A stretch of 64,000 nt of DNA from an uncultured Chloroflexia bacterium (GCA_963833705.1 CAWHYQ010000001.1:249525-313524); one strand, 5' to 3'. Positions 2,048-60,755 are shown, counted from the stretch's first letter. The notes: a model not told the origin generated them from the sequence alone. A program made the numbers and translations.

Positions 2048-3420
2048 GCCGTCGCCTCTTGTCGGTCGTGGCGGTCGCCGGGTTGCTGGCGAGCCTGGCG
2101 CCAGCCGTGTCGGCCGCGAGCTGGGCCGACTTCGGGACGCCGACGGCGCAGACCTCGTTCAAGACAGGCGTGCTGTTCAGCCAGCCGGTCACGACCTCCA
2201 AGGCCCTGGCTCGCGTGGAACTCCTGCTCACGTTCGCCGACGCGCTCGGCCCGACGGTCATCACGCTCCCGGCCCCAGGCTCGTCTGGCGCCACGACCCT
2301 GACCCACCAGCTCGATCCGGTGAAGGACGGCCATCTCCTGCCGAACACGCCGATCGTCGCCCGCTGGCGGCTCGTCGCCGCCGACGATCACGCCGATGTC
2401 GAGGTCGGACCGGAGCTGCGCGTGGTGTATGCGGATGAACGGTTCGACTGGAAGACCGAATTGGGAGACATCGTCCGCGTCCACTGGTATGACGGTTCCG
2501 ACGCCTTCGGAAAGCGCGCCCTCAGGATCGGCGAGGACGGCATCGCCGAGGCCTCCAAGCTCCTTGGCGTCACCGAGACGAAGCCCGTGGACTTCTACAT
2601 CTATGCCGACCAGAGCGCCTTCTACGACGCGCTCGGACCGGGGACCCGTGAGAACGTCGGTGGCCAGGCGAACGCCGGGATCCGGACGCTGTTCGCGCTC
2701 ATCCCGCCGGACCAGATCGACGACCCGTGGGTGGGCATCGTCATCCCGCACGAACTGACACACCTCGTGTTCAACACGGCCGCCGCGAACCCGTACCACT
2801 TCCCGCCACGCTGGCTGAACGAGGGCCTCGCGGTCTACTTGAGCCAGGGCTATGACAGCGGCGATCGAGGCCAGGTGGCGGACGGTGCGAAGAACGGGAC
2901 GCTGATCCCGCTCGATGGCCTGACAGGGCAGTTCCCGACCACCGGGGACCGGTTCTCGCTAGCGTACGCCGAGAGCGTGTCCGCGGTGGACTACCTCATC
3001 CGGACGTATAGCACCGACGCCCTCGTCAAGATGATCCGGTCATATGCGGACGGGCGGACCGACGACGAGGCCTTCACTGCTGCGCTTGGCCAGGACATGA
3101 CCGCGTTCGGGGCCGCCTGGTTGGCCGATGTGCACGCCAGGGCGCCGACCAAGTTCGGACCGCAGCCGGCCGTCCCGGGTCCGGTGCCTGCGGCCTGGGC
3201 GGGGAGCGGCGCACCCGCCACGGCGGCCCCGGCAGCTCCGACCGGCCACCCGGGATCCACCGCCCCGGTCGTGGCGACGCCGACCGCGCCCGCACCGACG
3301 GCGTCGAGCGACGACGCCGTCGGTTGGCTCGCCCCGTTGCTGGTGCTGGCGGCCGTCACCCTCGTGATCGGCCTCATCGTTGCGCGCTCGCGGAGCCGGG
3401 CCTCCGCGAAGCCGGAATGA
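2035..3420 (+). CDS. Secreted/membrane-anchored zinc metallopeptidase, Peptidase_MA_2-like (HExxH...E)
   Basis: Signal peptide MGRLSRRLLSVVAVAGLLASLAPAVSA. HELTHLVFN...WLNEGLAVYLSQG gluzincin motif. A Pro/Ala-rich linker and a C-terminal TM helix (LLVLAAVTLVIGLIV). 13-nt overlap with the upstream gene. Confidence 0.6.
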   Translation: MGRLSRRLLSVVAVAGLLASLAPAVSAASWADFGTPTAQTSFKTGVLFSQPVTTSKALARVELLLTFADALGPTVITLPAPGSSGATTLTHQLDPVKDGHLLPNTPIVARWRLVAADDHADVEVGPELRVVYADERFDWKTELGDIVRVHWYDGSDAFGKRALRIGEDGIAEASKLLGVTETKPVDFYIYADQSAFYDALGPGTRENVGGQANAGIRTLFALIPPDQIDDPWVGIVIPHELTHLVFNTAAANPYHFPPRWLNEGLAVYLSQGYDSGDRGQVADGAKNGTLIPLDGLTGQFPTTGDRFSLAYAESVSAVDYLIRTYSTDALVKMIRSYADGRTDDEAFTAALGQDMTAFGAAWLADVHARAPTKFGPQPAVPGPVPAAWAGSGAPATAAPAAPTGHPGSTAPVVATPTAPAPTASSDDAVGWLAPLLVLAAVTLVIGLIVARSRSRASAKPE

Positions 3421-4221
3421 CCGCCGTCGGGCGGCTGCGTGCCATCCCGAGCTGGCAGATCACGCTGGGTGCAGCGCTGCTCGCGCTGGGCTTCCTCATC
3501 GCGGCGCAGGCCGCCTCGGAACACCCGCGCGTTCGTTACACGACCCAGGAGCGGACGCCGCTGCTCGAGACGACCGGCGAGTTGCAGACGCAGCAGGATG
3601 CGCTCAAGGCCCGCATCCTCGGCTACCGGGACCAGATCCAGGAGATCGAGGGTCAGGGTGCGGGATCGGCGGACCTCGTCAGGCAGCTCAACGCCGATCT
3701 CGAGAAGGCCAGGATCGCGGCCGGTCTGATCCCGCTCACCGGGACGGGCATCGTCCTGCAGCTCGAGGATTCGCAGGAACCCGTCCCGCCCGACGGCAGC
3801 GCGTCGGACTATCTCGTCGGCTCGCGCGACATCCGAGCGGTCGTCGAGCAGCTCTGGTCGGTCGGGGCGGAGGCGATCGCCGTCAACGGTGAACGCATCA
3901 CGACCACGACCGCGATCATCGACGTCGGCCCGTCCGTCCTGGTCAACTCGTCGTACCAGGCGCCGCCGTACCAGGTCACCGCGCTCGGACCGCCGGAGCT
4001 GTACCAGCGGCTCAGCGCCGCCCCAGGATTTCGTGGATTTCCTGCGGGCTCGTGCCGAAGCCTACGGGATACGGGTGTCGTTCGCCGAGCCCGCATCGGT
4101 CGACATGCCCGCGTTCATCGGCACGGTGACGCTGCGCTACTCGCGACCCGTGTCGTCTGCCGCGCCGTCGCCCGGCGAGACCGGCGCCCCCTCGGCGCCC
4201 CCCGTCAGTCCGGGGAGATGA
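3417..4221 (+). CDS. DUF881 family protein (YlxW/YlxX-like, cell-division associated) with an apparent +1 frameshift near 4020-4030
   Basis: N-terminal TM helix then DUF881-like body (LQLEDS..DYLVGSRDIRAVVEQLWSVGAEAIAVNGERI...YQVTALGPPELYQRLSAAPG) in frame 0. A conserved-looking C-terminus (QDFVDFLRARAEAYGIRVSFAEPASVDMPAFIGTVTLRYS) continues in frame +1 and ends at TGA 4219-4221, overlapping the next ATG (ATGA coupling). Frame 0 itself has no stop until 4898. Confidence 0.5.
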
Positions 4222-4898
4222 CGATGCACCGGTTGCGCAGCCAGGTCACGATCGCCGCCGTCGCGTTCGTCCTCGGGTTGCTGGTCGTCGTGCAGGCCCG
4301 CTCCCAGGCGGGCGACACGGGTCTCGCCCAGCTGTCGGCACAGGACCTGACCGTGCTGGTCGCCAACCTCAACGCGCGCAACGATCAACTGAGGACAGAC
4401 GCGTCATCCCTGGAAAGCGAACTGGCGACACTGACCCAGAACCGGGCGCGCGGCGACGCCTCCGTCGACGAGATCACGGCGGACCTGCGACGTGTCCGCG
4501 CGTACGCCGGGCTCGACCCCGTCGGCGGTCCGGGTGTGGCCATCTCGGTCAGCGGCCCGATCGACGGCCCCGGCGTTGGAGAACTCATCAATGAGCTGCG
4601 CAACGCCGGCGCCGAGGCGATCGCGGTCGATGGCGCCCGCGTCGTGACGGGCGTCGTGGTGTCCGGCGGCGCGGGGGAGGCGGGGGTCGATGGGTCGAGA
4701 CTGCCGGACGTCTTCGAGTTGGCGGCCATCGGCGCGCCCGACAAGCTGACCGGCTCGTTGACCCGATCCGGTGGGGTCATCGCCCAGCTGGCGGCCACCC
4801 AACCGAAGGTCACGGTCACGGTGACCCCGGTGGACCGGTTGCAGTTGGCCGCGACGACGAGGGTCCTCGTGCCCGCCCACGGTCACCCGCGCCTTTGA
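4218..4898 (+). CDS. DUF881 family protein (second paralog)
   Basis: MTMHRLRSQVTIAAVAFVLGLLVVVQA TM helix. Coiled-coil segment and DUF881-like C-terminal domain (GPGVAISVSGP...AGAEAIAVDGARVV). ATGA overlap with the upstream gene. Confidence 0.7.
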   Translation: MTMHRLRSQVTIAAVAFVLGLLVVVQARSQAGDTGLAQLSAQDLTVLVANLNARNDQLRTDASSLESELATLTQNRARGDASVDEITADLRRVRAYAGLDPVGGPGVAISVSGPIDGPGVGELINELRNAGAEAIAVDGARVVTGVVVSGGAGEAGVDGSRLPDVFELAAIGAPDKLTGSLTRSGGVIAQLAATQPKVTVTVTPVDRLQLAATTRVLVPAHGHPRL

Positions 4899-4913
4899 TA
4901 CCCTGACGCGCCG

Positions 4914-5165
4914 ATGCCTTCCCAGCCTGTCCTCTCGTTGTTCCTGGGCGATGTCGTTCGCCTTCGGCGATCGCACCCCTGCGGCGGTGATACCTGGCTG
5001 GTGGACCGTCTCGGCGCCGACATCGGGTTGCGCTGCCGCACGTGCGGACGCCATGTCCTGCTCGATCGGCCCGTCCTCGAGCGCCGTCTGGTCGGGTTCG
5101 TCGAGCGGGGGGATCCGACGGTCACCGCGGCGCTCGCGCCCGTCGCGGACGGTCCGACGGCGTGA
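4914..5165 (+). CDS. DUF951 family small protein (CxxC-containing)
   Basis: LGDVVRLRRSHPCGGDTWLVDRLGADIGLRCRTCGRHVLLDR matches the DUF951 pattern (GD.V..K..HPCG..W.V.R.GADI...C..CGH). Confidence 0.6.
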   Translation: MPSQPVLSLFLGDVVRLRRSHPCGGDTWLVDRLGADIGLRCRTCGRHVLLDRPVLERRLVGFVERGDPTVTAALAPVADGPTA

Positions 5166-7735: not shown

Positions 7736-9384
7736 ATGCCGCTCGACACCCTCATCACGGGCCGCATCGCCACGCTGGCCGGGGACGCCGGCTTCGGCTG
7801 GGTGGAGGCGATCGGGATCCGCGACGGCCGGGTGGCGTTTGCCGGATCAGAGGTGTTCCTGGAGACCCGGGCCGACCCCTTCACGGAGCGGATCACCCTC
7901 GAGCCGGATGAGGTCGCCGTCCCCGGATTGACCGATTCGCACCTGCATCTCGCGGGTGCGGCCCTGGCGGCGCACATGGTGGACCTGTCCGATGCGCCGA
8001 CCCTCGAAGAGGGACTGGGCCGGATCGGCCGCGCCCATGGGTCATTGACCGACGGCGACACATGGCTGGTCGGCCATGGCTGGGATTCCGATCGCTGGGG
8101 CCGGTGGCCGACCGCCGCGGACCTCGAGACCGCCGCGCCGGGTCGCCGCAGCGCGATGTGGGCGCACGATCATCACGCCCTCTGGGCAAGCCTGTCGGCG
8201 CTCAGGACCGCCGGGATCGATCGGCAGACCCCGATCCGCCCGGTGGCGTCATCCGGCGCGACGCCGACGATGAGCCGGACGGCGTCCTGTACGAGGCCGC
8301 CGCGGGGCTCGTCACGGACCGGCTCCCGACACCGACTGTCGCCGAGCTCGAGGCAGCGCTGATCGCGACGGCGAATGACGTCCTCGCCCTCGGGGTGGTC
8401 GCCGTCCACGATCCCGGCGGGCTGGTCCGGGACCCCGATCTCGCCTGGTCGTATCCGGCGTATGCCCACCTGTCCGAGACGGGACGGCTGCCGCTACGCG
8501 TTTGGGCCTCATTGCGCGAAGAGGCGCTCGACACCGCATTGGCCGGCGGGCTGCGCAGCGGCGCCGTGCTCGGCGCGAATCCCGATGGTCGCGCGCGCGT
8601 CGGGTGGCAGAAACTGTTCGCGGACGGATCGCTGGGTTCGCGGACCGCCGCGCTGCTCGAAGACATCGACCCGGAGGTGGACCGCCCGCTTCCGCCCGAC
8701 CGACGTCGTGGGGTCTGGGTCACCGAACCCGAGCGACTGTCGGAACTCGCCGAACGCGCGGCCACCGGTGGCATCTCGACGCAGATCCATGCCATCGGCG
8801 ACGCGGCGGTGCGCGCGGCGCTCGATGTGCTGTCCCCGACCGCCGCGCGAGTCCCGTTCATGCCCCGCCTGGAGCACGTCCAGCTGCTCGATCCGGCCGA
8901 CCGGGGGACCTTCGCGGCGGCGGGGGTCGCGGCGAGCGTCCAGCCCGTGCATCTCGGTTCGGACGCCGCAACGGCGCGTCGGACGTGGGGGGCCCGAGCC
9001 GAAGGCCATGGGTATACGTGGGCGTCCATCGCGGCGACGGGTGCGGTCATCGCGTTCGGCACCGATGCGCCCGTCGAGTCCTTCGACCCGTGGCCAGGGA
9101 TCGCGTTGGCCGTCTGTCGCCGGGATGCGCGCTGGCCCGCCGGGACGCCCCCGTACGGACCGCACGAAGCGCTCCGGCTGGACCGCGCGCTGCGTGCGGC
9201 CTGCGTGGACCCCGCGCTGTCGGCCCGCGAGACCGATCGCGGCCGCCTCACGGTCGGTCAACGGGCGGATATCGCGGTCATCCCGGCCGCCGCTCTCCGC
9301 GAACCGGTCGAACCGGGCGGCGCACTCGCCACGTGTCGCCCGACCCTCGTACTGCTCGACGGGCGGGTCGTCTTCGAGGCCTGA
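7736..9384 (+). CDS. Amidohydrolase family 3 (YtcJ-like metal-dependent hydrolase) with an apparent frameshift near 8225-8235
   Basis: N-terminus (ITGRIATL..GIRDGRVAFAG, TDSHLHL) lies in one frame up to ...LRTAGIDRQTP. The continuation (DPPGGVIRRDADDEPDGVLYEAA...HAIGDAAV...FGTDAPV...) lies in the adjacent frame. The junction is in a CCCC homopolymer. Confidence 0.65.
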
Positions 9385-9399: not shown

Positions 9400-10789
9400 C
9401 TACGGCGCCTGCCGGTCCAACTCGCGGCGTGCGTCGGCGAACAGGCCGTTGAAGATGCGTGACGTCGACGGGAAGGCATGGATGGTCTCGGCCAGGACGT
9501 CGATCGGGACGTGTGCCTTGATGGCCAGCACGCATTCGTGGATGGCCGCCGACGCGTCCGGGCAGGCCATCGCGGCCCCGACCAGCTCGCGCGGTCGCCC
9601 GATCCACCACGATCGTGACGTGGCCGGACTTCGCCTGGACGGCGTAGCCCTTGCTGCTCGTCGCGAAGTCGGCGACCAGCTCGAAGGCGTCGAGGCCGGC
9701 CTCGCGCGCACCATCCAGGGTGAGCCCGACCGACGACGCCTCGGGATCCGTGTAGGTCGCGCGTGGCAGCGCCCGATAGTCGGGCGCGACCGCCTCGCCG
9801 AGCGCCATCCGCACCGCGAGCTCGCCCTGGTAGTGGGCCTGGTGCGTGTGGAGTTCGGGCCCCGCCGGGTCGCCGATGACCCACAGGCCATCGGCGATGT
9901 GGAGGCGGCCGTCGCGCGGGAACGGGGTCCGCCCGCTCGTGTCGATGCCGTAGTGCTCGAGCCCCAGGTCATCGAGCGGGAACTCGCGCCCGACCGCGAG
10001 GAGGACCGCGTGCCCCTGCGCGGTCGAACCGTCGTCGAGATCGATCAGGTGGGCGCCGTCCGTCCCGGCACCGGCACGTGCTCGCAGCGCTCGGACGCCG
10101 GTCCGGACGACGACCCCGTCGCGTTCGAGGGCCCCCCGGATCACCTCCGAGTTGCGGGGGTGATCGGTCGGGGCGAGTCGCGGGCCGGACTGGACGATCG
10201 TGGTCGGGACGCCGAACCGAACGTAGACCTGGGCCAGCTCGCAGCCGGTCGGCCCGCCACCCAGCACCAGCAGGCTCTTCGGCAGCTCGCGGGCGAGGGT
10301 CGCGTCGCGATTGGTCCAGGTCGGGACGTCGGCGATGCCCTCGATCGGCGGCTTCTTCGAGCCCGATCCGACGGCGACGACGACGTTCGTGGCGTCGAGG
10401 TCGTGCACGACGTCCTCGTGACGGACCGAGACACGACCGACGTCGACGATGGTTGCGTTCCCCCGGTAGACCACGGCGCCCGCATCGGTCAGGCCGCGGA
10501 CGTGGGTGGTGTCGTCCGGTTCGGCCGCTCCAGCCGGACGATTGATCATGAAATCGCGCTGGGCGGACGCGTCGGCCCACGAATAGGTCGCCGGGTTCGC
10601 GGCGTGTCGCGCCGCGCCGTCGAGCAGCGACTTCGAGGGCAGGCAACCGATATGCGGGCAGCTCCCGCCGAACCACCGTCGATCGACGACGGCCACCGTG
10701 GCACCCAGTTCGCGCGCCTTGTAGCTCGCCGCCTCGCCGGCCGGCCCCGCGCCGATGACGAGGAAGTCGTAGCGCTCCATGGTGGTCAC
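9400..10789 (-). CDS. FAD-dependent pyridine nucleotide-disulfide oxidoreductase (dihydrolipoyl dehydrogenase / MerA-like class I) with an apparent frameshift near 9600
   Basis: MERYDFLVIGAGPAGEAA...GGSCPHIGCLPSK redox-active CxxxxC and NAD-binding GGGPTG. The conserved dimerisation-domain C-terminus (RELVGAAMACPDASAAIHECVLAIKAHVPIDVLAETIHAFPSTSRIFNGLF) is in a different frame (ORF 9400..9972). Confidence 0.65.
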
Positions 10790-11647
10790 CTCGTCGGCGC
10801 GACCGGTGCGGCCGGCGTCGACGTCGACGGGCCGCGCTGTCGCCGGGCTTCGTACAGGAGGATCGCGGCGCTGACGGACACGTTGAGGCTGTCCGCCACG
10901 CCGAGCATGGGCAGCCGGACGGAGTCGATGTCGTCAGCCCTCCAGGCATCCGTCAGGCCGTCGGCCTCGGCACCCAGCACGAGCGCGAGTGGTCCCTTCA
11001 GGTCGACTTCCGTGTAGAGGCGGTCTGCGTCGACTCGCGCGGCCACGATCCGCAGGCCCCGCTCGGCGAAGCCAGTCGAGGACGTCGGACGACGCCGGCG
11101 GTGCCGAGGGGCACGGTGAAGACCGTCCCGGCACTGGCGCCGGATGGCATTGGGATTGAAGGGGTCGGTGCGCGGTGACGGCGACGACGACGGCGTCGGC
11201 CCCGGCGCCATCGGCGGATCGCATGACCGCTCCGACGTTACCCGGTTTCTCGAGTGCCTCGATGACCGCGACGAGCGGGTCGGGCGGCAGATGCGAGGTC
11301 GGCCGAGGTCGGTCGATGGGATGCGGGCCACGGCGACCAGCCCCTCGGCCCGCTCGCCGAAGGCGAGCCTCGGCGAAGATGGCCTCGTTCGTGCGGTGGA
11401 CGAGACGTCGCCGGCGCCGCAGCCGGTCGAGCGCGGCCGCGGGCGTCGGCGCCGGCGAGCCGTGGCTCGCACACGAACGCCTCCATCACCTCCACCCCCG
11501 CGTCGAGCGCTCGCGCGAAGCTCGCGCGCGCCGTCGATGAGCGTCAGCCCCGTCCGGTCGCGTTCGCGTCGGTCGCGCAGGCGCGACCGCGGCCTTGATC
11601 CGTGGATTGCCGAAGCTCGTGAGCACGGTCGGGGTGGGGGAGGGCAT
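10786..11647 (-). CDS. TrmH/SpoU-family RNA 2'-O-methyltransferase (RlmB-like) disrupted by several apparent frameshifts
   Basis: Fragments of one roughly 287-aa gene spread over three frames. N-terminal LTSFGNPRIKAAVA (start ATG 11647), then ...RERDRTGLTLIDGARELRAS, then IRSADGAGADAVVVAV, then the C-terminal RIVAARVDADRLYTEVDLKGPLALVLGAEADGLTDAWRADDIDSVRLPMLGVADSLNVSVSAAILLYEARRQR (SPOUT knot region). Confidence 0.5.
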
Positions 11648-11718
11648 CGGCCTGTCATCATGCCCCGCCGGCGGTTCGCGCGAAGGCCCCGAGCTCGAGC
11701 CGCCGCCGTCGACGGTCG

Positions 11719-12495
11719 TCAACGCCAGCTCGCCGGCCTCGAGCGTCCCGGGACGCCGGCCCACCGCAGACCCGAGCGATCGCCGCCAGCGACCGAGTCG
11801 TCGAACCCGAGCGAGTGCGCGGTCAGCAACATGAACCCATCCTCCCCGAGGATCCGGGCGCACGCGGCAAGGAGCCTGGGCAGGTCATCCTCGAGCCGCC
11901 ACGGGCGCGTGCCCGGTCCGTGGCCATAACTCGGTGGGTCGAGCACGATCCCCGCATACCGGTGGCCACGACGCACCTCCCGCTCCGTGAATGCCAGCGC
12001 GTCATCGACGATCCAGCGGACCGGCCGGGCCGCGAGACCCGCCAACTCGGCGTTGCGTCGTGCCCAGGCGACCGTCGGCCGTGACGCGTCGACATGGACG
12101 ACCGCGGCGCCGGCGGCCGCCATCGCGAGCGTGCCGAGACCGGTGTAGGCGAAGAGGTGCAGCACGGCCGGCGCCTCGCCCGGGCTTCGAGCCGCGACCC
12201 GGCCCCGGAGCCATGGGAGCATCGCCTGGTGTTCGGGAAAGAGTCCCACCTGCCCGGCGTCCGTCGGGCGGAGTTCGAGGGTGATCCCGTCCAGGTCGAC
12301 GGTCCACGGCGTCATCGAACCCGGGTCGCCGCTCCAGCCGCGGTCGCGGTCGTAGCGAAGGTGTGCCGTCCGCCAGGGCGCCGGGTCGGTCCGCTCCCCG
12401 TTCGCGGTCGGCGCCGGTCGGTCCGTCACCCGGTCGCCGAACCGCTCGAGCCTCGCGCCACCCCCGATGTCGAGCAGGGCGTAGCCTCCGTCCAT
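11719..12495 (-). CDS. Class I SAM-dependent (rRNA) methyltransferase, RlmI/YccW C-terminal-type
   Basis: LFAYTGLGTLAMAAAGAAVVHVDAS...WARRNAELAGL...RWIVDDALAFTE...YAGIVLDPPSYG Rossmann MTase motifs. Start at internal ATG 12495 (MDGGYALLDIGGG). The C-terminal ~25 aa overlap the TrmH start and may also be frame-corrupted. Confidence 0.55.
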   Translation of the reverse strand: MDGGYALLDIGGGARLERFGDRVTDRPAPTANGERTDPAPWRTAHLRYDRDRGWSGDPGSMTPWTVDLDGITLELRPTDAGQVGLFPEHQAMLPWLRGRVAARSPGEAPAVLHLFAYTGLGTLAMAAAGAAVVHVDASRPTVAWARRNAELAGLAARPVRWIVDDALAFTEREVRRGHRYAGIVLDPPSYGHGPGTRPWRLEDDLPRLLAACARILGEDGFMLLTAHSLGFDDSVAGGDRSGLRWAGVPGRSRPASWR

Positions 12496-12672
12496 CGCCA
12501 CCCGACGATGATGACGCGGTGAGGGTCGGACCGTTGTCCACGAGAGGTGCCTTCGGCTATGATGCCAATCGCCGCTGGCTCCTCGTCGCCGCGGTCCTGG
12601 CATCCGTCGCGGACGTGGAACACCCGCGAGCCAACGGACCCAGGACCTCGTCGAGGGGGAACCGGCGACGTC

Positions 12673-12746
12673 GGGCGGCTAGCTCAGCTGGTTAGAGCAC
12701 TTGCTTGACATGCAAGAGGTCACTGGTTCGAGTCCAGTGTCGCCCA
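12673..12746 (+). tRNA. tRNA-Val (anticodon GAC)
   Basis: GGGCGGCTAGCTCAGCTGGTTAGAGCACTTGCTTGACATGCAAGAGGTCACTGGTTCGAGTCCAGTGTCGCCCA. Cloverleaf with 7-bp acceptor stem, anticodon stem CTTGC/GCAAG, anticodon loop TTGACAT, T-loop TTCGAGT, and an encoded CCA after A73. Confidence 0.85.
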
Positions 12747-12759
12747 CCATCAGATCGAG

Positions 12760-12999
12760 ACCGAAGAGAGCGTCGAGCGGGACGCGCCGCGTGGAGCGAA
12801 CCCTTCCAGAGAGCCGGGTCCAGGCTGGAAGCCCGGCGGGTCACCACCACTCGGTACCACCCGTGAGCGGCCGGCGAACCGGCCCGGGCGTCGCCCGTTA
12901 GCGCGACCATGAGTGCGCCACCAACACGGTGGCGAAGGCGGGTGGGACCGCGGGAGATGACCTCTCGTCCTGTCGATGGACGAGAGGCGTTTTGATTCT
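12760..12999 (+). promoter_or_regulatory. T-box riboswitch leader of thrS (Thr-specific, ACC specifier candidate) with intrinsic terminator
   Basis: T-box core GGGTGGGACCGCGG at 12940-12953 (consensus GGGUGGNACCGCGG). Directly followed by a 10-bp perfect hairpin CCTCTCGTCC-tgtcgat-GGACGAGAGG (12961-12987) and cgTTTTgaTTcT. Then SD GGGAGAGG (13001-08) and ATG 13015. Upstream leader contains AGAGAG elements and ACCACCAC (ACC codon + A). Confidence 0.55.
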
Positions 13000-13014
13000 C
13001 GGGAGAGGCGCACC

Positions 13015-14850
13015 ATGACGGACGAACGGATCGACGAGGCGGAGGTCGGGCTCGAGGCTCCGGCGCGCGGGTCGGCGGACGAGTTGCTCGACGCCGGGGC
13101 CCACAGCGAGCTCGACGCCATGCGCCATTCGACGGCGCACGTCATGGCCGAGGCCGTGCTGGACCTGTTCCCGGGGACCAGGCTCGGCATCGGGCCGGCC
13201 ATCGACGACGGGTTCTACTACGACTTCGAGCTGCCCCGCCCGCTGACCCCGGACGACCTCGCCGCGATCGAGGCGCGGATGGCCGCAGAGCATCGCCGCC
13301 GACCACCCGTTCGTGCGCCGCGAGCTGCCGCCGGAAGAGGGTCGTGCCTTCTTCGCCGAGCGCGAGCAGCCGTTCAAGGTGGAGATCCTCGACGACCTCG
13401 CGTGCCGGTCGAAGCGCGACGGGACACCGATGCCGCCGACCTCGGTCTACGAACACGGGCCCTTCGTCGACCTGTGCAAGGGGCCGCACGTCGCCTCGCA
13501 CCGGGGAGATCGGGCCGTTCAAGCTGCTCGCCGTCGCGGGCGCCTACTGGCGAGGCGACGAGAAGCGCCCGATGCTCCAGCGCGTCTACGGCACGGTCTG
13601 GGCGAACCAGGAGGACCTCGATCGCTACCTGTGGCGACGCGAGGAGGCGAAGAAGCGCGACCATCGCCGCCTCGGCGTCCAGCTCGATCTGTTCAGCTTC
13701 CACGACATCAGCCCGGGCTCGGCCTTCTGGCACCCTAAGGGCTGGACGCTGTACCGGACGCTCGAGGGCGCCATGCGCGAGCTGCAGGACCGCCGCGGCT
13801 ACCAGGAGATCTACACGCCGCCGCTCGTCCATCAGCGCCTCTGGGAACAGTCGGGTCACTGGGACCTCTACCGCGAGCACATGTTCCTGCTCGAGTCCGA
13901 AGGGCAGACCTACAGCCTCAAGCCGATGAACTGCCCGGAGTCCACGTACATCTACAAGAGCAAGATCCGCTCGTATCGCGACCTGCCGCTGCGCCTGTCC
14001 GAGTACGGCAAGCTCCACCGGAACGAGCTGTCCGGCACGCTCTCCGGTCTGACCCGGGTCCGCCATTTCGTCACCGACGACGCCCACGTCTATGTCCGCC
14101 CCGACCAGATCGGGTCGGAGATCGAGGCGATGCTCGGTGAGATCCGCGAGTCGTACTGGGTGGGTCGGTCTCACCCCGCGGCTGACGTTCGGGACGCGAC
14201 CCGACAAGGCGCTCGGCGACCCCGCCATGTGGGACCGGGCCGAGGCGCTCATCAAGGACGCGCTCGAGCGCTCCGGGGCCGACTACCGGATCAAGGAGAA
14301 GGACGGAGCGTTCTACGCACCGAAGATCGACATCCAGGTCGAGGACGCCCTCGGGCGCGAGTGGCAGACGGCGACCATCCAGGTCGACCTCGTGATGCTG
14401 CCCGAGCGGTTCGACCTGCACTACATCGACGAGGAGGGCAAGCAGCAGCGGCCGGTCGCCATCCATCGCGCGATCTACGGCTCGCTGGAGCGGTTCATCG
14501 GCGTCATCACCGAGCATTTCGCCGGCGCGTTCCCGCTCTGGCTGGCGCCCGGTCCAGGCCGTGGTCATCCCGATCGCCGATCGCCACGTCGAGGCAGCCG
14601 AGGAACTGGCCGGCGTGCTGCGCGCGCGCGGCCTGCGCGTCGAGGTCGACGGACTCGGACAACCGGATGCAGAACAAGATCCGCCTGGCCCAGGAGCAGA
14701 AGGTGCCGTACATGGTCGTCCTCGGCGACCGCGAGATCGAGGCCCGGACCGCCTCTCCGCGGACGCGTGCCGGCGAGCAGCAACCGCCCGAACCATGGGA
14801 CGCGCTTCGCCGACCGATTGGCCGCCGAGAGCCGCGATCGGACCGTGTGA
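13015..14850 (+). CDS. thrS: Threonyl-tRNA synthetase, reading frame broken at about 6 positions
   Basis: Conserved ThrRS blocks are recognisable in order but alternate between frames. [17 protein letters not shown] | [36 protein letters not shown]...GPHVAS | [31 protein letters not shown]...KPMNCPEST...HRNELSG...TDDAHVY | [23 protein letters not shown]...[16 protein letters not shown]...[14 protein letters not shown] | [20 protein letters not shown] | [28 protein letters not shown]... Approximate junctions at 13290, 13505, 14160, 14550, 14650, 14790. No TGS domain. Confidence 0.7.
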
Positions 14851-14947
14851 AAGGCGTATCGTGACGCCGACCGCAGCCTCGGCGGTAGTGGACCTGACTC
14901 CCGCGCCCGCCGGGCTGGCGGACGGGCACGACGGCCGGGAGGATCCG

Positions 14948-15589
14948 ATGTTCGAGGCGATCGGCGGGCGGGTCAGCCGCGTTTCTCGACGCGCCGTCCT
15001 TGGCCTTGTCGTGCTGTCGCTGGCGGGTTGCAGCGGGACGCCGTCAGGGGCGCGGGTCGACGCCGGTGGCGCGTCGGCGAGCACCGCGATCGCGGCGCCG
15101 AAGCCCGGCGGGGGCGGTGGTGCGCTCGGCGTCCCGGTCACGGCGGGCGGCGACCTGTGCAAGCTCCTTGGCCCCGGCGACTTCGCAGCGGCCGGCGTGC
15201 CCGACGCGAGCGGCCCGACCGAGAACCCGAGCGACCCACTCGACAACTTCTGCGTCTACCGCGGCCAGTCCAGCGCGACCGGTGGGATCGAGATGGACGT
15301 CAGCGTGTCCGACACCGCCGCGGACGCGCATGGTGTGTTCCCCGAGATGTTCGGCGAATACCCGGCGGCCAATGTCAAGTCGGTGACGGTCGCCGGCGCG
15401 GACGAGGCCCTGCTGAACCTGCCGACCTTCGAGGGCAGCACCGACCCCGCCCTGATCGGCGTCCGGAAAGGCAAGCTGACGATCGGCATCGGCTTTGGCA
15501 CCACCTACGCGAATGCCCAACAGGCCGCACAGCAGCTCCAGGCACTGGCGGCCCTGGCGCTCCAGCGTGGGGCGGCCCTCGGTGGCTGA
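14948..15589 (+). CDS. Lipoprotein, DUF3558-like, unknown function
   Basis: Signal peptide with lipobox (VLGLVVLSLAGCSG). Gly/Ala-rich linker and two conserved-looking Cys (DLCKLL, DNFCVY). Confidence 0.5.
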   Translation: MFEAIGGRVSRVSRRAVLGLVVLSLAGCSGTPSGARVDAGGASASTAIAAPKPGGGGGALGVPVTAGGDLCKLLGPGDFAAAGVPDASGPTENPSDPLDNFCVYRGQSSATGGIEMDVSVSDTAADAHGVFPEMFGEYPAANVKSVTVAGADEALLNLPTFEGSTDPALIGVRKGKLTIGIGFGTTYANAQQAAQQLQALAALALQRGAALGG

Positions 15590-16478: not shown

Positions 16479-16595
16479 CCCTCGTCATTGTCGGCTTCAG
16501 AACCTGTGTGCTATCCTCCGCCTTCGGCCGGAACCGGGTCGTCGTGTACCCGCGCCGGTCGTGATCGAATCTCGTCATCACGAAGGGGACAGACC

Positions 16596-17410: not shown

Positions 17411-17417
17411 GGCCAGA

Positions 17418-46484: not shown

Positions 46485-46648
46485 GGCGGGTCTCCGTTCG
46501 CTGCGACCCCGGGGGTGAGGTCGATGTCGACACGCTACGGGCGGACCGGCCCTCCGGACATCGAGCGCTCTCCCCATAGGAGGGGGCATCGACCCTTCAT
46601 TTCGGGCGCTCGTTCGCGAAACGGGCCCTTTACTGGGGCCACGGACCT

Positions 46649-49698: not shown

Positions 49699-49771
49699 TC
49701 GACCGGCGGGTGCCATCGTGGTCCGCTCCGGCGAGTGGTCCCAGGGATCGGATGAGGAGCGTGACGGACAG

Positions 49772-50825
<1,054 letters not shown>

Positions 50826-53427: not shown

Positions 53428-53467
53428 GGTCGCCCTCGAGGCCCATCGAGTGCGGAGGTCCTCACAG

Positions 53468-54127
53468 ATGATCGACACTGCATCGCACGGGCGCCGGCGA
53501 CTCGTCGTCGGCCTGCTCGGCCTGATGTTGGCAGCCTGCTCGCCGAGCACCGTCGCGAGCACGAGCCCAGCTCCATCGGTCGCCGCGGTCGCGACCGCCA
53601 CCGCTGAGCCCACGCCCAGCCCGACGGCGTCACCCACCGCGAGCCCCACGCCTTCGCCGTCCCCGAGTCCGACCCCGGCTCCGACTGCGACGCCGACGGC
53701 ACCACCCGACGCGGCTGCGGGGCTCGCCATCGGCAAGCCGTACTCGCTGGCGCCCCTCGACCCGATCCTGGAAGCCTCCATGCGCCAGCAGATCGTCGGA
53801 TCGGCCGGGCCCGTGGCAGCCTTGATGGGCTTCGGGGGCCGCGACGTCAGCAAGAACGGCGCCCTGGCCGGCTATGTGTTCGTCATCGACTTCCCGGCCG
53901 GCATCCTCAATGACACGTCGTATCAGTCGTTGATCGCCGGCGTGGAGGCGAATTCGTCGACCAAGCTCAAGACCGTGACGATCTCAGGTGTCACGGTCTC
54001 GACCGGGGCCGTCGCGAACGGGTTCCTTGGCCTGTACCGGAAGGGCGACCGCGTCGTCATGGTCATCACCCCGACCGCCGTGGAACTCACCGCGATCACG
54101 AAGGCCTTGATCGCCGCCAACAAGTGA
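53468..54127 (+). CDS. Lipoprotein with Pro/Thr/Ser-rich linker, unknown function
   Basis: Lipobox LMLAACSP. Low-complexity PSPTASPTPSPSPSPTPAPT linker then a globular domain. Confidence 0.5.
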   Translation: MIDTASHGRRRLVVGLLGLMLAACSPSTVASTSPAPSVAAVATATAEPTPSPTASPTASPTPSPSPSPTPAPTATPTAPPDAAAGLAIGKPYSLAPLDPILEASMRQQIVGSAGPVAALMGFGGRDVSKNGALAGYVFVIDFPAGILNDTSYQSLIAGVEANSSTKLKTVTISGVTVSTGAVANGFLGLYRKGDRVVMVITPTAVELTAITKALIAANK

Positions 54128-54301
54128 TCCCGGACGCGACGAGTGGCCCGCTGATGCGCGAGCCATCCGGCGTCTGACCGCGAACCGCGCCTGTAACGTT
54201 TGTCGATCGTCCGCGTTGTCACGCGCAGATGGGCGGTGACGCCCTTCCGATCCGATCGAGCGTGCGACCACGCCAGCGTCGATGCAGAGAGAGGCCGAAC
54301 C

Positions 54302-55147
54302 GTGAACGAGGGCCCACTCGATCCCGAGCCTGGATCCGCTCCGTCAGAACCGGCACCCGAATCCTCTTGGCCAGAACCTGAGCCTGGAACCCCGACGCTC
54401 GCCGGCGAGGCCGCGCTCCCGCCCAGCCCGGCGGCACGCCCCCGAAGGCAATTCCTGGCCGTTGCGGGTGGCCTCGTGGTCGTTGTCGGCTACCTCGGCG
54501 TCAAGTTCCTTCTCGGGTTCGTCGTCGCGGGCGCGGCGGCCGGTGCCATCGGCGCGGTCTTTGGCGGACCCTGGGACCACCTCCCGTCCGATACCCGGGA
54601 CCGGGACGTTGCGCGCATCGAAGCCGCTGTCGGCCCCAGCTTCAAGGGACTCTCCGATGCCGATCAGGCGAAGCGACTGGCCGACCTTCAGGCTGGCGGC
54701 CTGCCGCGCCTCGATGATGCGACGCTGATCGACCGCGTCGGGATCTTCGCCGCCGCGCTCAACGCGACAGACGAGCACACATGCGCCACGGTCATGCGGG
54801 TCTCGTTCGGCGACCCGTTCGACAAGGAAAGTGCGAAGAAGCTCATCGGTTCGCTGGACTCCACGGCGTTCAGTCGATGGGTGGAGATCGCCGTCGAGGC
54901 CATCGAGGCCGAGTCCAAGGCGGCCCCGCCGGCGCGCAAACCCTCGGACGCCGAGGCCAACGCGATGTTCGACGCGGTATTCGCACGCATTTCGCCCACT
55001 GACCAGGCGACGATCGCCTCCGTCCAGAGTGGGACCGCCGTGTCGGACGGGGTGGTGTGCGCCGCTGGACGAGCGATCTATGGCGTCGGTCTTGGGCTCG
55101 AGCCGGCGCAGCGCGCGACCTTCGCCCTCACCGACGTCCAGTCCTGA
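54302..55147 (+). CDS. Hypothetical single-pass membrane protein
   Basis: Acidic/Pro N-terminus, one TM helix (FLAVAGGLVVVVGYLGVKFLLGFVVAGAAAGAIG), and a C-terminal soluble domain with 2 Cys. Confidence 0.45.
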   Translation: MNEGPLDPEPGSAPSEPAPESSWPEPEPGTPTLAGEAALPPSPAARPRRQFLAVAGGLVVVVGYLGVKFLLGFVVAGAAAGAIGAVFGGPWDHLPSDTRDRDVARIEAAVGPSFKGLSDADQAKRLADLQAGGLPRLDDATLIDRVGIFAAALNATDEHTCATVMRVSFGDPFDKESAKKLIGSLDSTAFSRWVEIAVEAIEAESKAAPPARKPSDAEANAMFDAVFARISPTDQATIASVQSGTAVSDGVVCAAGRAIYGVGLGLEPAQRATFALTDVQS

Positions 55148-55192
55148 GCGACGCCCAACGGATCGAGGGCTCTGCCTCCCGAGGGTGGAGAC

Positions 55193-55495
55193 TCACTCCT
55201 GCGGGCCGGCGCCCCCTGCATGTGTCCCGGTCAGCCCGCCGTGGACGACCTGGTTCGGCGATGCCTTCGGCGTCGTGGTGACACCTCTGGCGGCCCTGGA
55301 GCCGGCGGCGGCCGGGTCGCGCGTGCCCGCCTGGTAGGGGTCGCCCTCGAGACGTTGCGCGGCCGGTCCGCTCGGATCGAGCGCCGTGGGACCGGGGAGT
55401 GCCGAGCCTGTCGAGCAGGCCGCGGCACCGGCCGCGATGCATGCGGCCAGGACGAGGCGGGCGACCCCGCGGCCGCCCGTGATGGATCCAGACAT
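55193..55495 (-). CDS. Possible small lipoprotein (100 aa), low complexity
   Basis: Signal peptide VARLVLAACIAAGAAACSTG. The remainder is Gly/Pro/Ala-rich. Could be spurious. Confidence 0.25.
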   Translation of the reverse strand: MSGSITGGRGVARLVLAACIAAGAAACSTGSALPGPTALDPSGPAAQRLEGDPYQAGTRDPAAAGSRAARGVTTTPKASPNQVVHGGLTGTHAGGAGPQE

Positions 55496-55710
55496 CGATC
55501 AACCTCCGCGTGTCAATGAACCGACCTCGGGCCGAGGTCGGTTCCGCCACGCTATGGGTCGGCCCGCTCGCGCACATCCGGTGGTCGCCCCATGCCGGCC
55601 ATCACCGCACCTTCATTTTCCGGGCGGTCGGACCATGGTCCGGCGGCTCCCGCCTTTAGCCGACGCCCGGCCGCATCGGCCGTCGGCGCGCGGCGGCTAG
55701 ACTTCCGCAC

Positions 55711-56629: not shown

Positions 56630-57586
56630 GTGACGGTCGCGTTCCGTCGTCGTCGACACGACCCGCTGCCGGCCGAGGGCTCCGGTCGGGTCCACCCACC
56701 CGGCCCGTCGACGATCGACCTCCACACGCACACCACCCGCTCCGACGGCGTCATGGGCCCCGCGTCGCTCGTTCGAGCGGCGGCCGATGCCGGCGTCCGT
56801 CTCCTTGCCCTGACCGACCACGACACCCTCGCCGGCTACCGCGACGTCGTCGCGGCGGATGCCGTGCCATCCGGCGTGACCCTCATCCCGGGCGTCGAGA
56901 TCAACGCGATCGTCACGCGAGATCTTGGTCCATGGGAGGGGGAACTCCACATCCTGGGCTTCGGCATGGACCCGGCCGACGAGGCGTTCGAGGCGACGCT
57001 CGCCGCCCAACGGAGCCACCGTCGCGAGCGGTTCGAGCGGACCGTCGCGCGTCTGCGTGAGCTCGACCTGTCGATCGACGACCAGCTGCTCGACCTGCCG
57101 GGTTCCGATGACGACGCGCTCGGCCGTCCGACCATCGCGAGAGCGCTCATCGGCGCCGGCCACGCCGCGACCGTGGACGACGCGTTCGGGCGGCTGCTCG
57201 GTTGGGGGAAGCCAGGCTACATCCCGCGCAGCGGGCTCGGACCGATCGAAGCGATCGCGGCAATCCGCGACGCCGGCGGATTGCCCGCGTTGGCGCACTT
57301 CAGCGAGGCGCCGTCTCGGGTCGAGGTCGTGCGCGAGTTGGCCGATGCCGGTCTGGGTGGGCTGGAGGTCTACTACCGAACATTCGACGCGGCCACGGTC
57401 TTCGCGGTCGGTGAGGTCGCCTCCGCGCTCGCCCTGGTCGCGACCGGTGGCACTGACTATCACGGCGATACCGGCACCTACGCCGAGGCGCACGCCGGGT
57501 TGTGGGTCCCACCTGAGGTCGCCGCGGGTCTGCGTGCCGCTGGCGTCGCGGACGCCGTCGTCGTAGGCTCGCCGGCACAGCCATGA
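56630..57586 (+). CDS. PHP-domain phosphoesterase
   Basis: IDLHTHTTRSDG, LALTDHDT, metal-binding His/Asp pattern of the PHP family. Confidence 0.75.
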   Translation: MTVAFRRRRHDPLPAEGSGRVHPPGPSTIDLHTHTTRSDGVMGPASLVRAAADAGVRLLALTDHDTLAGYRDVVAADAVPSGVTLIPGVEINAIVTRDLGPWEGELHILGFGMDPADEAFEATLAAQRSHRRERFERTVARLRELDLSIDDQLLDLPGSDDDALGRPTIARALIGAGHAATVDDAFGRLLGWGKPGYIPRSGLGPIEAIAAIRDAGGLPALAHFSEAPSRVEVVRELADAGLGGLEVYYRTFDAATVFAVGEVASALALVATGGTDYHGDTGTYAEAHAGLWVPPEVAAGLRAAGVADAVVVGSPAQP

Positions 57587-59203
57587 CCGACCATCCCATC
57601 CCGACCCGCACGCTGCCGATGCTCGAGTTCGTCGCCCCGCCGGCGCCGAGCGCCCCGCGCCGACCCGCCACACCCGGCGACGCGCGCCTGGCCGAATACG
57701 TCCCCGAGACGCGGATCCTGCCGCGGTTCCACCTCTGGACGCTGGGCTGCCAGATGAACCGGAGCGATTCGGAGGAGATGGCCGGGCGACTGTTGACCGC
57801 CGGCTGCGAGGAGGCGCCCACGCTCGAGAGCGCCGACCTCGTCGTCATCAACACTTGCGCGATCCGCGAGGGCGCCGAGCAGAAGGTCATCGGTCGGATG
57901 GGCCAACTCGCGCGACTCAAGGCCGCGAAACCGGGCATGCGGGTCGTGCTGACCGGCTGCTCGGTCCGCGAACCGGACCGGGCCGGGCTGGCTCGTCGAT
58001 ACCCCGCCGTCGACCTGTTCCTGCGACCCGACGAGGAGCCTGAGCTCGTCGATCGTCTGGGGCTCGCGTCGGCCCAGGCACCGATCGGCGCGATCGGCGC
58101 GACGACGAGCGTCGGTCGAACGGTCGTCGGCGTCGCGGACCATCTCGCCGGCACGCGAGCGCGGGCGGTGGGGGAGGGGACCGTGGCGCGGGGCTCGACC
58201 ATCGCCGCGTGGCTGCCGATCATCTACGGCTGCGACAAGACGTGCACGTACTGCATCGTGCCGTTCAGCCGCGGTCCGGAGCGCAGCCGGCCGTTCGACG
58301 ACATCGTGGACGAAGCACGGACCCTGGCCGCCGCCGGCTACCGCGAGGTCACCCTCCTCGGCCAGAACGTCAACTCCTACGGGCACGACCTGCCGTCCGA
58401 CCCGCGGTTCGGTCACGTCGAATTCCGCGCGCTGGGCGGGTCATCGCCTGGACCTTGCCGGTCGCCCCGACCTGGCCGAACTGATCCGCGCCATCGACGC
58501 CCTTCGCACCGCCGACGGCCGGCCCGCCATCGAACGGCTGCGCTTCGTCACGTCGCACCCGTGGGACCTGTCGGACCGGCTCATCGCGGCCCTGGCCGAC
58601 TGCGAGTCGGTCTGCGAGCACCTCCACCTGCCGGTCCAGTCGGGCTCCGACGCCGTGCTGCGCCGGATGGGCCGCCAGTACACGATCGAGCACTACGGGG
58701 AGCGTCTTGCGCGGATCCGCGACGCCGTGCCCGGGATCACCGTCTCGACCGACGTCATCGTCGGGTTCTGCGGCGAGACCGAGCCGCAGTTCGAGGAGAC
58801 CCTGGCGCTGCTCGAGGCGGTCCGCTACGACCAGGTCTTCGCGGCGGCCTACTCGCCGCGACCCGGCACGCCCGCGATCCGCCTCGACGACGACGTCCCG
58901 GCCGATGACAAGCGGCGTCGACTCAACACGCTGCTCGCGGTCCAGGAGCGGATCGGGCTCGAGCGCAACGAGGCCTGGCTGGGTCGCGAGGTCGACGTCC
59001 TCGTCGATTCGATCAACCCGGCCCGCGGCCACGACCACGCTGACGCAGAGCCGATCGGAGACGGCAGTCGGCTGTCCGGGCGGACCCGAGGCAACAAGCT
59101 CGTGCACCTGTCGGGCGACGAGGCGCTGGTCGGTCGGACGGTCCTCGTCAGGGTCGACCACGCCGGGCCGTATGCGCTCCGGGGCGCGCTCGTCGGCGCG
59201 TGA
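57583..59203 (+). CDS. miaB: tRNA-2-methylthio-N6-dimethylallyladenosine synthase MiaB with an apparent frameshift near 58438
   Basis: N-terminal MTTase cluster (LGCQMN, NTCAIRE, LTGC). Radical-SAM CDKTCTYC. After ...NVNSYGHDL...RALGG the conserved continuation (DLAGRPDLAELIRAIDAL...RLRFVTSHP...HLPVQSGSD...TRAM domain) is in the next frame. ATGA overlap with the PHP gene. Confidence 0.8.
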
Positions 59204-60133
59204 CCGCCGGTCCGCCTCTGGTCGTCCTCGCCGGGGCCACGGCGACGGGCAAGACTGAACTGGCCATCCGACTGGCCGAGTCGATCGTTGCCGGCGGCCG
59301 CCCCGCGGTCGTCATCTCGGCCGACTCGCGCCAGGTGTTCCGTGGTCTCGACATCGGCACGGCGAAGGCCTCGGCGGCGGACCAGGCTCGGGTCCCGCAC
59401 CGCGGGCTCGACCTCGCCGACCCGGACCAGCCGTTCAGCGTGGCCGATTTCGCCGCCCATGCCCGCGAGGCGCTTCGGGAGATCGGCGCCCGGAATGGCG
59501 TCGGGATCCTTGCCGGTGGGACGGGCCTCTATCTCCGGGCCGTCGGGCGTGGCCTCGCCACGGACGCGTTGCCGAGCGACCCCGAGATCAGGGCCAGGCT
59601 GGAGGGAGCATTGATCGAGAGCGGGCTCGAGCCCCTGGTGGCTCGATTGCGGACCGTGGCGCCAGAGACGGCCGCACGGATCGACACGCGCAATCCGCGA
59701 CGCGTCGTGCGGGCATTGGAGATCGTCGAGATCACCGGCGACGTACCGCCGCCCGGTCTCCGCGGGTACCCGGGCCCGATCGCGTGGCTCGGCCTGAGCG
59801 TGGAACCTTCCGGACACGCCGAACGTATCGCGACGCGGGCGCGCGCCCAGTTCGAGGCCGGCCTGGTCGACGAGGCTCGGGCGCTGCGAGAACGTTTCGA
59901 CCCCGCCCTACCGGCGTTCTCCGCGATCGGCTATCGGGAATCGTGGGGCGTCCTCGACGGCTCGTTGACGCTCGCGGAAGCCATCGACCTGGACGTGGCG
60001 CGCAATCTGGCCTTCGCCAAGCGTCAGCGGACGCTGGTTCCGTGCGGAACCCGACATCGTCTGGCTGGACGCGACCGATGCGCTCCCGGAGGGCGCGGCC
60101 CGCGAGGCGACCCGGCGGTTGACCGACGCCTGA
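59200..60133 (+). CDS. miaA: tRNA dimethylallyltransferase MiaA with an apparent frameshift near 60040
   Basis: P-loop GATATGKT, ...AFAKRQRT then the conserved C-terminus WFRAEPDIVWLDATDALPEGAAREATRRLTDA* in the adjacent frame (stop TGA 60131-33). GTGA overlap with miaB. Confidence 0.8.
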
Positions 60134-60137
60134 CGCA

Positions 60138-60171
60138 CGAAGACCGGCCCGGGGCACCGGACCGGTCTTCG
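60138..60171. terminator. GC-rich hairpin between convergent miaA and the downstream minus-strand gene (candidate bidirectional terminator)
   Basis: CGAAGACCGG-cccggggcaccgga-CCGGTCTTCG. Perfect 10-bp stem, no U-tract. Confidence 0.35.
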
Positions 60172-60215
60172 GTCGGTTCGGTCGATGCTCCGCGACGACC
60201 GCGGAGCGCTGACGG

Positions 60216-60755
60216 CTAGCTGGTCGGGGCAGCCGGGGGGGCCGGCGGGGTCGGGGCGGCCGGAGGGGCCGGTGGAGGCGGCGTCCGCATGGCGGCAGCC
60301 GCTGCCGCGTTGGCGGCCTGCGCCTGGGCCAGCGCCGCCCGCTGCTCGGGCGTCATCAGGCTCATCTCCTTGTCGATGAAGTGCTTCTGCACGCCCGGGT
60401 AGTTGAGGTAGAAGAAGATGAGCATCGCGATGAAGATCGGCGCCGCCTCCTCCTCGAGGGTCGACGATCCGAGGACCGCGAAGAAGCCGAAGATCAGCGT
60501 GAACATGCTGATGAAGAGCCCGAACGACCACGCGTAGGCGCGGACGTTCCAGAACCCCTCGGCGACCCAGAACCAGATCGCGGCAAGGATGATCGCGAAG
60601 AACGCCTGGCCCCACTGGGGTTCGTTGAAGGAGACCGGCTTGCCGACGAACGTGAAGTCGACGATGCCGAGGAAGACCAGGGTCCGCCAGATCTCGAAGA
60701 GTCCCGCCAGCCCGGCACCGACTGCCAGGAGCGTGACGCCGATCGGTCAATTCAT
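60216..60755 (-). CDS. Hypothetical 4-TM membrane protein with Ala/Pro-rich C-terminal tail; N-terminus disrupted (ATG-AAT-TGA)
   Basis: The frame continues upstream of the track's 96-aa ORF: PIGVTLLAVGAGLAGLFEIWRTLVFLGIV...AFFAIILAAIWFWVAEGFW...AWSFGLFISMFTLIFGFFAVLG...PIFIAMLIFFYLNYPGV...MTPEQRAALAQAQAANAAAAAAMRTPPPPAPPAAPTPPAPPAAPTS. The only upstream ATG (60755) is followed by AAT TGA in frame. Confidence 0.4.

Follow-up and report, generated by a model that had tools for sequence, protein, structure and literature searches.

The broken reading frames in 11 genes of the analysed DNA very probably represent a sequencing or consensus artefact rather than pseudogenes and, judged from the sequence, these genes can be read as intact. 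The window, i.e., the whole stretch of 64,000 nucleotides that was analysed, is from a high-GC (70%) genome of the soil Chloroflexota lineage ‘Candidatus Limnocylindria’. An earlier note on this DNA had named indel sequencing or assembly error as the simplest explanation of its frameshifts. This view held, as relatives assembled from short reads lacked the lesions, relatives assembled from long reads carried lesions of the same type, and removal of the lesions restored full-length, stop-free proteins with normal conservation.

Inventory of lesions

Relatives were compared with the window using blastn and a custom protein-to-DNA aligner that permits frameshifts. When the window was aligned, with frameshifts allowed, to intact orthologs taken from short-read assemblies, 10 genes showed approximately 26 frame breaks. 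One base was surplus at 21 of them (+1) and two bases at two, and at three one base was missing (−1). Together with a single nonsense substitution, this gives 27 lesions in 11 genes. Insertions of one or two bases accounted for 23 of the 26 indels, and larger indels were absent. Six breaks were located in thrS, about 11 in a TrmH-family gene and two in a SAM-methyltransferase gene, while the genes for a DUF881 protein, an amidohydrolase and a FAD-oxidoreductase as well as infC, recA, miaB, and miaA had one break each.

The at least 13 apparent frameshifts counted in the earlier note were thus real, but the number was too low, and the ortholog alignments found every gene it named disrupted at or near the coordinates it gave. 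The same alignments showed no breaks in the long neighbours that it had described as intact (pheT, mutS2, the PBP1A gene ponA, the LAL regulator, and the his genes); pheS, rplT, rpmI, tyrS, rny, and others were intact as well. Its placing of junctions in short homopolymers was right for the deletions and wrong for most insertions, which are flanked by differing bases. On the same ground, homopolymer slippage was rejected as an explanation covering every junction.

Some further candidate events were also dismissed. Near 35.6 kb, where the frame plot hinted at a split hisD, the DNA holds yerC-like and hisG as distinct genes, both intact. Events upstream of rny (51.79–51.90 kb) arose from the alignment of untranslated or low-complexity sequence contained in stop-to-stop reference frames, and the same artefact explained events at the C-terminus of the MFS protein (6705/6760) and near the N-termini of several references.

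A dense stretch of lesions around thrS

The lesions were unevenly distributed, with 19 of the 27 found within 3.75 kb (11056–14808), corresponding to ~5 per kb. On an earlier list of 24 lesions, not the final 27, the density was 4.4 per kb in 11.0–14.85 kb versus 0.12 per kb elsewhere (17 of 24 lesions; binomial P = 4e-16), which bears out the uneven clustering described before. GC content was rejected as the cause of the cluster, since the region at 24–26 kb has similar GC and zero lesions. The dense stretch stops just before a 1.7-kb insertion (14850–16580) that is specific to the window and missing from relatives.

In this part of the window, thrS (13015–14850, + strand) encodes a ThrRS of 609–611 aa that has no TGS domain. 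It carried surplus bases at 13288, 13499, ~14157, ~14548, ~14651, and ~14805, so that the reading frame passes through f0, f1, f2, f0, f1, f2, and f0. Five references agreed on these sites and on exactly one surplus nucleotide at each, in line with the roughly six junctions previously estimated. The repaired ThrRS shared 81–90% identity over 100% of its length with more than 120 intact orthologs of 610–616 aa. No short-read ThrRS of the same species was found, the best match being 90% identical at the protein level, and searches for exact matches to L20, L35, and PheS, aimed at the source genome or a contig of the same species, gave no hit.

The gene for a SpoU/TrmH-family RNA methyltransferase (10816–11661, − strand) was even more affected. 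Ten single surplus bases were located at ~11578, 11511, 11435, 11368, 11298, 11291, 11176, 11136, 11102, and 11065, and an eleventh break with a net effect of +2 (or −1) at ~11645. The earlier reading of three or more junctions in this gene therefore pointed in the right direction but was low. Two breaks, a net +2 at ~11777 and a −1 at ~11703, were located in the C-terminal part of the gene for a SAM-dependent methyltransferase (Methyltrans_SAM, PF10672; 11661–12603, − strand), a broken gene that had not been listed before. The tRNA-Val(GAC) gene (12673–12749, + strand), also within the dense stretch, was intact; it aligned without gaps to the relatives and was identical to that of L003.

Isolated lesions

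The remaining eight lesions were scattered over the window. Copy 1 of the DUF881 gene (3417–4221, + strand) had a surplus T at 4030 (4030–4032) in GGA[T]TTC, which moves the frame from f2 to f0; the true stop is at 4219–4221 and the original sequence was probably GATTC, a GANTC motif. In the gene for a YtcJ-like amidohydrolase (Amidohydro_3; 7736–9384, + strand), one base was missing from a C-run at 8229–8232 (~8229–8233), where ACC CCC GAT appears as ACCCCGAT. With one base added, the protein has 549 aa, as have more than 100 orthologs. As these orthologs are continuous and the site is a C-run, a real frameshift shared by the window and L003 was rejected. The gene for a FAD/pyridine-nucleotide disulfide oxidoreductase (9400–10789, − strand) had a surplus base at ~9589–9590, ACC[G]CGCGAG on the coding strand. 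An apparent −1 at 10664 in the same gene was discarded, since the error sits in the reference L003 and the window is correct.

infC (16623–17410, + strand) encodes an IF3 with an Ala/Pro/Thr-rich C-terminal tail, and one G was missing at ~17111–17113, where AAG GGC is read as AAGGC. The −1 at ~17112 takes out the true stop at 17408–17410, so the open reading frame 16488–17615 continues in frame into rpmI (17418–17615). This accounts for the stopless run from infC into rpmI that the earlier note had reported.

In recA (49718–50825, + strand), a surplus T at 50006 interrupts the Walker A motif (GPE|SSGKT). Alignment to six references gave CCG GAA [T]TCG, confirming the earlier observation of an extra T that creates GAATTC, here probably from an original GAATC. 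miaB (57583–59203, + strand) contained the same kind of lesion, a surplus T at 58423 in GTC GAA [T]TCC, with GAATTC again likely derived from GAATC, and miaA (59200–60140, + strand) had a surplus base at ~60028, CGT CAG [C]GGA CGC. The last lesion was in the gene for a small conserved membrane protein (60216–60756, − strand), in which codon 3 (60748–60750) is an in-frame TGA. The beginning of this gene, ATG-AAT-TGA (60748–60756, minus strand), had been taken for a frameshift. The gene is indeed disrupted, but its frame is kept: codon 3 is Arg in orthologs (M-x-R-PIGVTLL; MNRPIGVTLL...), and the change is a CGA>TGA nonsense substitution, i.e., G>A at 60750 on the + strand, inside a presumed GATTC.

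Relatives assembled from short and long reads

All genes broken in the window were intact in five syntenic relatives assembled from short reads (L001, L002, L004, L161, and L163), and L081–L086 were likewise intact at the lesion sites. When the short-read relatives were compared mutually, no genuine mid-gene frameshift was found over ~17–25 kb. The number of frame events was zero in L001, L002, L004, and L161, and L162 had only two, of which one coincided with an N-gap and the other with the point where a partial alignment ends. Relative to L163, the broken genes were no more diverged (ThrRS 84%, FAD-oxidoreductase 85%) than the intact ones (MFS 78%, L35 83%).

Long-read relatives of the same clade demonstrated the same kind of damage in different genes and, three sites apart, at other positions, mostly as one surplus base and at 0.8–2 per kb. 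There were nine events in 11.6 kb of L003 (eight of them +1), 16 in 8.2 kb of L019, and 17 in 11 kb of L165, a Flye-style contig with 11 events in the FAD-oxidoreductase gene alone. L003 and L019 are Nanopore-only R10.4.1 MAGs assembled with Flye and one round of Medaka (PMC12313526), and the authors of that catalogue flag Nanopore-associated errors in lower-coverage MAGs (PMC12313526). Three sites recurred at identical positions: the amidohydrolase C-run (window and L003), TAC[T] in thrS (window and L019), and residue 397 of the FAD-oxidoreductase (window and L165). Recurrence at homologous positions was confined to long-read assemblies and never seen in short-read ones. The dominant lesion, an insertion outside homopolymers, is not the textbook Nanopore error, and its precedent is an empirical one, provided by L003, L019, and L165.

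Motif association and proposed origin of the errors

Of the eight isolated lesions, four (three insertions of T and the G>A change) were in GA[AT]TC motifs, and two more were homopolymer under-calls. Three isolated lesions out of eight fell in strings derived from GA[AT]TC, which constitute 0.45% of the window (P = 5e-6); with the nonsense substitution at 60750, there is a fourth case beside the three counted in this P value. None of the 19 clustered lesions fell in such strings. Two of the six GAATTC sites in the window were lesion junctions, and 43 of the 47 GA[AT]TC sites were unaffected, meaning that ~9% of the copies were hit. Modification-linked error-prone sites have been documented in R10.4.1-only assemblies (PMC11610603; PMC11610573). 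Both the recurrence of sites and the link to GA[AT]TC suggest a partly systematic error.

The window was most likely assembled from long reads only, probably Nanopore reads processed in a Flye/Medaka-type pipeline, and the frame breaks are very probably errors of the consensus sequence, not present in the DNA of the organism. Three error regimes can be told apart. At 11.06–14.81 kb, with ~5 single-base insertions per kb and an adjoining strain-variable insertion, the consensus may have been built from very few or conflicting reads. For the isolated GA[AT]TC lesions, base modification at a GANTC-type motif may have disturbed base calling. The remaining regime is homopolymer under-calling, with C5 read as C4 in the amidohydrolase gene and G3 as G2 in infC.

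Alternative explanations

Genuine gene decay would place the frameshifts in the DNA itself, with, e.g., the thrS–TrmH segment as a decaying copy and functional paralogs elsewhere. The concentration of lesions in a few genes with untouched neighbours is what such a process could produce, but we consider it very unlikely. The locus TrmH–methyltransferase–tRNA-Val–thrS–infC–rpmI–rplT–pheST is conserved and syntenic in all relatives, and the genes struck include essential single-copy ones (thrS, infC, and recA in its Walker A motif). Bacterial pseudogenes demonstrate a deletion bias and mixed indel sizes, whereas 23 of the 26 indels here are insertions of one or two bases, none larger. Secondary decay of the pseudogene type was not seen in the restored frames, which had no stops, no deletion bias and identities at least equal to those of intact neighbours, with the restored ThrRS up to 90% identical to intact orthologs. 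The same syndrome was moreover found in other long-read assemblies and in no short-read assembly. Programmed recoding, in which ribosomal +1/−1 frameshifting or transcriptional slippage bypasses the breaks and these are conserved features with a function, is known from the +1 programmed frameshift of prfB and from the slippage that rescues poly(A) frameshifts in endosymbionts. Three breaks have a counterpart at the homologous site of a second assembly, which could be taken to favour it. These recurrences are limited to long-read assemblies, however, and short-read orthologs are unshifted at the positions concerned; the contexts are heterogeneous, a shared slippery motif or long homopolymer is absent, and up to 11 shifts would be required in one 0.85-kb gene. 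The probability of this explanation is accordingly close to nil.

A different question is how the dense stretch arose if it is an artefact. Instead of low read depth, the reads of several co-existing strains may have been collapsed into one consensus, chimeric or poorly polished at a strain-variable locus, an explanation that we regard as possible although not the probable one. The stretch ends beside the 1.7-kb insertion absent from relatives, the intergenic content of thrS–infC and methyltransferase–thrS varies among relatives, and L165 offers a parallel in which lesions crowd one gene and spare those next to it. From a mixture of strains, however, one would expect extra substitutions and mixed indels, not almost only insertions, and the sequence alone cannot separate strain collapse from low depth. 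It is also conceivable, but extremely unlikely, that all lesions, or those of the 3.75-kb block alone (TrmH, methyltransferase, and thrS), are real and record a very recent localised burst of single-base insertions, e.g., from error-prone repair synthesis over one tract, in a Limnocylindria line surviving via paralogs or population-level complementation. A milder reading, more likely than such a burst, would take the four errors at GA[AT]TC as a sign of active GANTC-type adenine methylation in this uncultured lineage.

Consequences for annotation

If the lesions are artefacts as proposed, 11 genes in the window are prone to mis-annotation as pseudogenes, fragments, or fusions, among them the essential thrS and infC and the near-essential recA, and an artificial IF3–L35 fusion would be created. 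It would then be wrong to infer from this locus that genes were lost or recoded or that its biology is unusual. As the same syndrome occurs in the public long-read MAGs L003, L019, and L165, protein databases would be contaminated by their fragments. Since the error appears partly systematic, it could be corrected or used to infer a methylation motif.

Comparison with known systems

The lesions resemble the residual indels of Nanopore-only MAGs in the Microflora Danica catalogue (PMC12313526), in that single-base indels split conserved genes and a surplus base predominates; the under-calls C5 to C4 and G3 to G2 also match the classical picture. That paper blames low coding density mainly on long homopolymers in low-GC, low-coverage MAGs (PMC12313526), whereas the window, presumably of the same platform, has 70% GC and insertions that are mostly outside homopolymers and packed in one 3.75-kb stretch. 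Modification-linked Nanopore errors (PMC11610603; PMC11610573) are similar in that four of the eight isolated lesions belong to one short palindromic class, GA[AT]TC, a subset of GANTC, and in that these include a G>A substitution, which is the type stressed in the literature. Substitutions dominate among the published errors, but three of the four in the window are T insertions, only ~9% of the motif copies are affected, and GANTC methylation is putative here.

With the +1 frameshift of prfB and the slippage in endosymbionts, the window shares the resumption of reading in an adjacent frame with conserved protein on both sides. It differs in having many sites per gene with no conserved slippery site or long homopolymer, and orthologs in accurate assemblies do not share its breaks. 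Genuine bacterial pseudogenes of reductive evolution are similar to the window in that conserved genes are cut by frameshifts, here together with one stop. In the window, however, there is neither secondary decay nor deletion bias, and the lesions fall in essential, syntenic single-copy genes and follow sequencing technology rather than phylogeny.

Frame breaks in conserved genes

ORF lists are uninformative at the 70% G+C of the window, and disrupted genes were therefore sought with a GC3 frame plot and a frameshift-tolerant protein-to-DNA aligner, which was written for this analysis and queried with proteins from syntenic relatives. Events close to the ends of stop-to-stop reference frames were dropped as artefacts, and short-read loci aligned against one another as a false-positive control gave zero genuine mid-gene events. 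The nearest relatives of the window are Chloroflexota 'Candidatus Limnocylindria' MAGs and soil/sediment metagenome contigs, not actinobacteria. They share with it an extensive gene order (peptidase-MA, two DUF881 genes, DUF951, MFS, asparaginase, amidohydrolase, FAD-oxidoreductase, TrmH, SAM-methyltransferase, tRNA-Val, thrS, infC, rpmI, rplT, pheST, then mutS2) and a second block (recA, rny, then miaB, miaA, hflX). Three segments are absent from the closest syntenic relatives: 14850-16580 (1.7 kb, between thrS and infC), encoding a lipoprotein and an alpha/beta hydrolase; 41560-46650, encoding a thioredoxin-like gene and a 1044-aa LAL (AAA_16-TPR-LuxR) regulator; and 53430-55700, with two ORFs without family match.

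An earlier note had reported broken frames in conserved genes, which our census confirmed and extended to 21 one-base and two two-base insertions, three one-base deletions and one nonsense change. In thrS, the roughly six junctions proposed were found as six (13288, 13499, ~14157, ~14548, ~14651 and ~14805), each adding exactly one nucleotide without the loss of a residue, and they were the same against five references (L001, L002, L004 and L163 from short-read assemblies, L165 from a long-read one). The TrmH-family gene, credited with three or more breaks, has ~11 in 0.85 kb, ten of them one-base insertions; two breaks in the adjacent SAM-methyltransferase had been overlooked. One surplus base each was located in the FAD-oxidoreductase (9589), the first DUF881 gene (4030, context GA[T]TTC) and miaA (~60028). 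The extra T described for recA lies at 50006, within the Walker A motif, in the context GAA[T]TC, identical to that of a surplus T in miaB (58423). The amidohydrolase lacks one base in a C-run (8229-8232), and infC lacks one G at ~17112, so that the stop at 17408-17410 is bypassed and the ORF joins rpmI in frame, as the run-on had appeared. The small membrane protein gene (60216-60756, minus strand), which opens ATG-AAT-TGA, is indeed disrupted, but not by a frameshift: since ortholog N-termini read M-x-R-PIGVTLL, the TGA is a CGA>TGA substitution (60750) that leaves the frame unchanged.

The neighbours named as unbroken (pheT, mutS2, PBP1A, the LAL-type regulator, the EF-G-like gene and hisG/D/C/B/H/F/IE) were intact by alignment, as were peptidase-MA, the second DUF881 gene, DUF951, MFS, asparaginase, rpmI, rplT, pheS, tgt, rny, hflX, tyrS, an SBP and tRNA-Val.

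ThrRS of this clade (~611 aa; window 13015-14850, L163:17602-19437) has tRNA_SAD, tRNA-synt_2b and HGTP_anticodon domains without an N-terminal TGS domain. IF3 carries a low-complexity, Ala/Pro/Thr-rich C-terminal extension of ~95 residues (17113-17410) ending in PAPEPVPTGE, also found in relatives L001 and L163. The membrane protein (~178 aa, without Pfam domain) is strongly conserved in Limnocylindria-like metagenome contigs (730 matches at E<=1e-10), with the N-terminus M-x-RPIGVTLLA.GAG.AG..E.WR.LVF.G.

Origin of the lesions

The uneven clustering noted earlier is pronounced, with 19 lesions within 11,056-14,808. Density was 4.4 per kb in 11.0-14.85 kb versus 0.12 per kb elsewhere (17 of the 24 lesions listed before the final census, P = 4e-16). 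This dense stretch stops directly ahead of the 1.7-kb insertion (14,850-16,580), and tRNA-Val is unaffected although it lies within it. Low depth and strain collapse are candidate causes.

It is very improbable that the lesions are genuine in the organism's DNA. Their removal restored proteins without stops, including a 609-aa ThrRS with 81-90% full-length identity to >120 orthologs (610-616 aa) and a 549-aa amidohydrolase of the same length as in >100 orthologs, and the broken genes had diverged no further from the short-read reference than had the intact genes. Nearly all indels are one-base insertions and none exceeds two bases; bacterial pseudogene decay has the opposite spectrum. Lesion presence follows sequencing technology: there were none in the short-read loci (L001, L002, L004, L161, L163, L081-L086), and the long-read loci L003 and L019 had 0.8 and ~2 per kb, predominantly one-base insertions. 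Both are Nanopore-only (R10.4.1) MAGs from the Microflora Danica catalogue, for which Flye was used with a single Medaka round (PMC12313526). L165, a Flye-style contig, has an intact thrS (ThrRS 89% identical to the window's), but its FAD-oxidoreductase is broken at 11 points, which repeats the clustered syndrome in a different gene. Repaired ORFs, indel spectrum and technology together support the indel sequencing or assembly error proposed earlier, and argue that the frame breaks are a consensus-sequence artefact, not biology.

Many core genes are frameshifted in the public long-read assemblies of the clade, L003 (MFD05442.bin.2.330), L165 (ERZ25039554 contig_69293) and L019 (MFD09848.bin.2.59; thrS, rpmI, pheS, pheT and mutS2), and their predicted proteomes will include fragments.

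Recurrent sites and sequence context

For three lesions of the window, another long-read assembly has the same lesion at the homologous position: the amidohydrolase C-run (8229-8233, L003:4760-4775), TAC[T] in thrS (14157, L019:~10654) and residue 397 of the FAD-oxidoreductase (9589, L165). These long-read assemblies are independent and show only 75-87% DNA identity, and short-read orthologs are normal at the three sites; the recurrence indicates reproducible, context-dependent consensus errors.

The two isolated deletions (amidohydrolase, infC) are homopolymer under-calls. In the inferred sequence, GA[AT]TC holds four of the eight lesions outside the dense stretch (4030, 50006, 58423 and 60750; for three of eight, binomial P = 5e-6). 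The window has just six GAATTC sites, two of which are the recA and miaB lesions, and the membrane-protein nonsense change is a G>A within an inferred GATTC. From this context we infer that GANTC is methylated in the window's organism. The GANTC-type lesions may be the trace, via base-calling errors, of a putative GANTC adenine-methylation system in an uncultured lineage; error-prone sites linked to base modification are described for R10.4.1-only assemblies (PMC11610603; PMC11610573).
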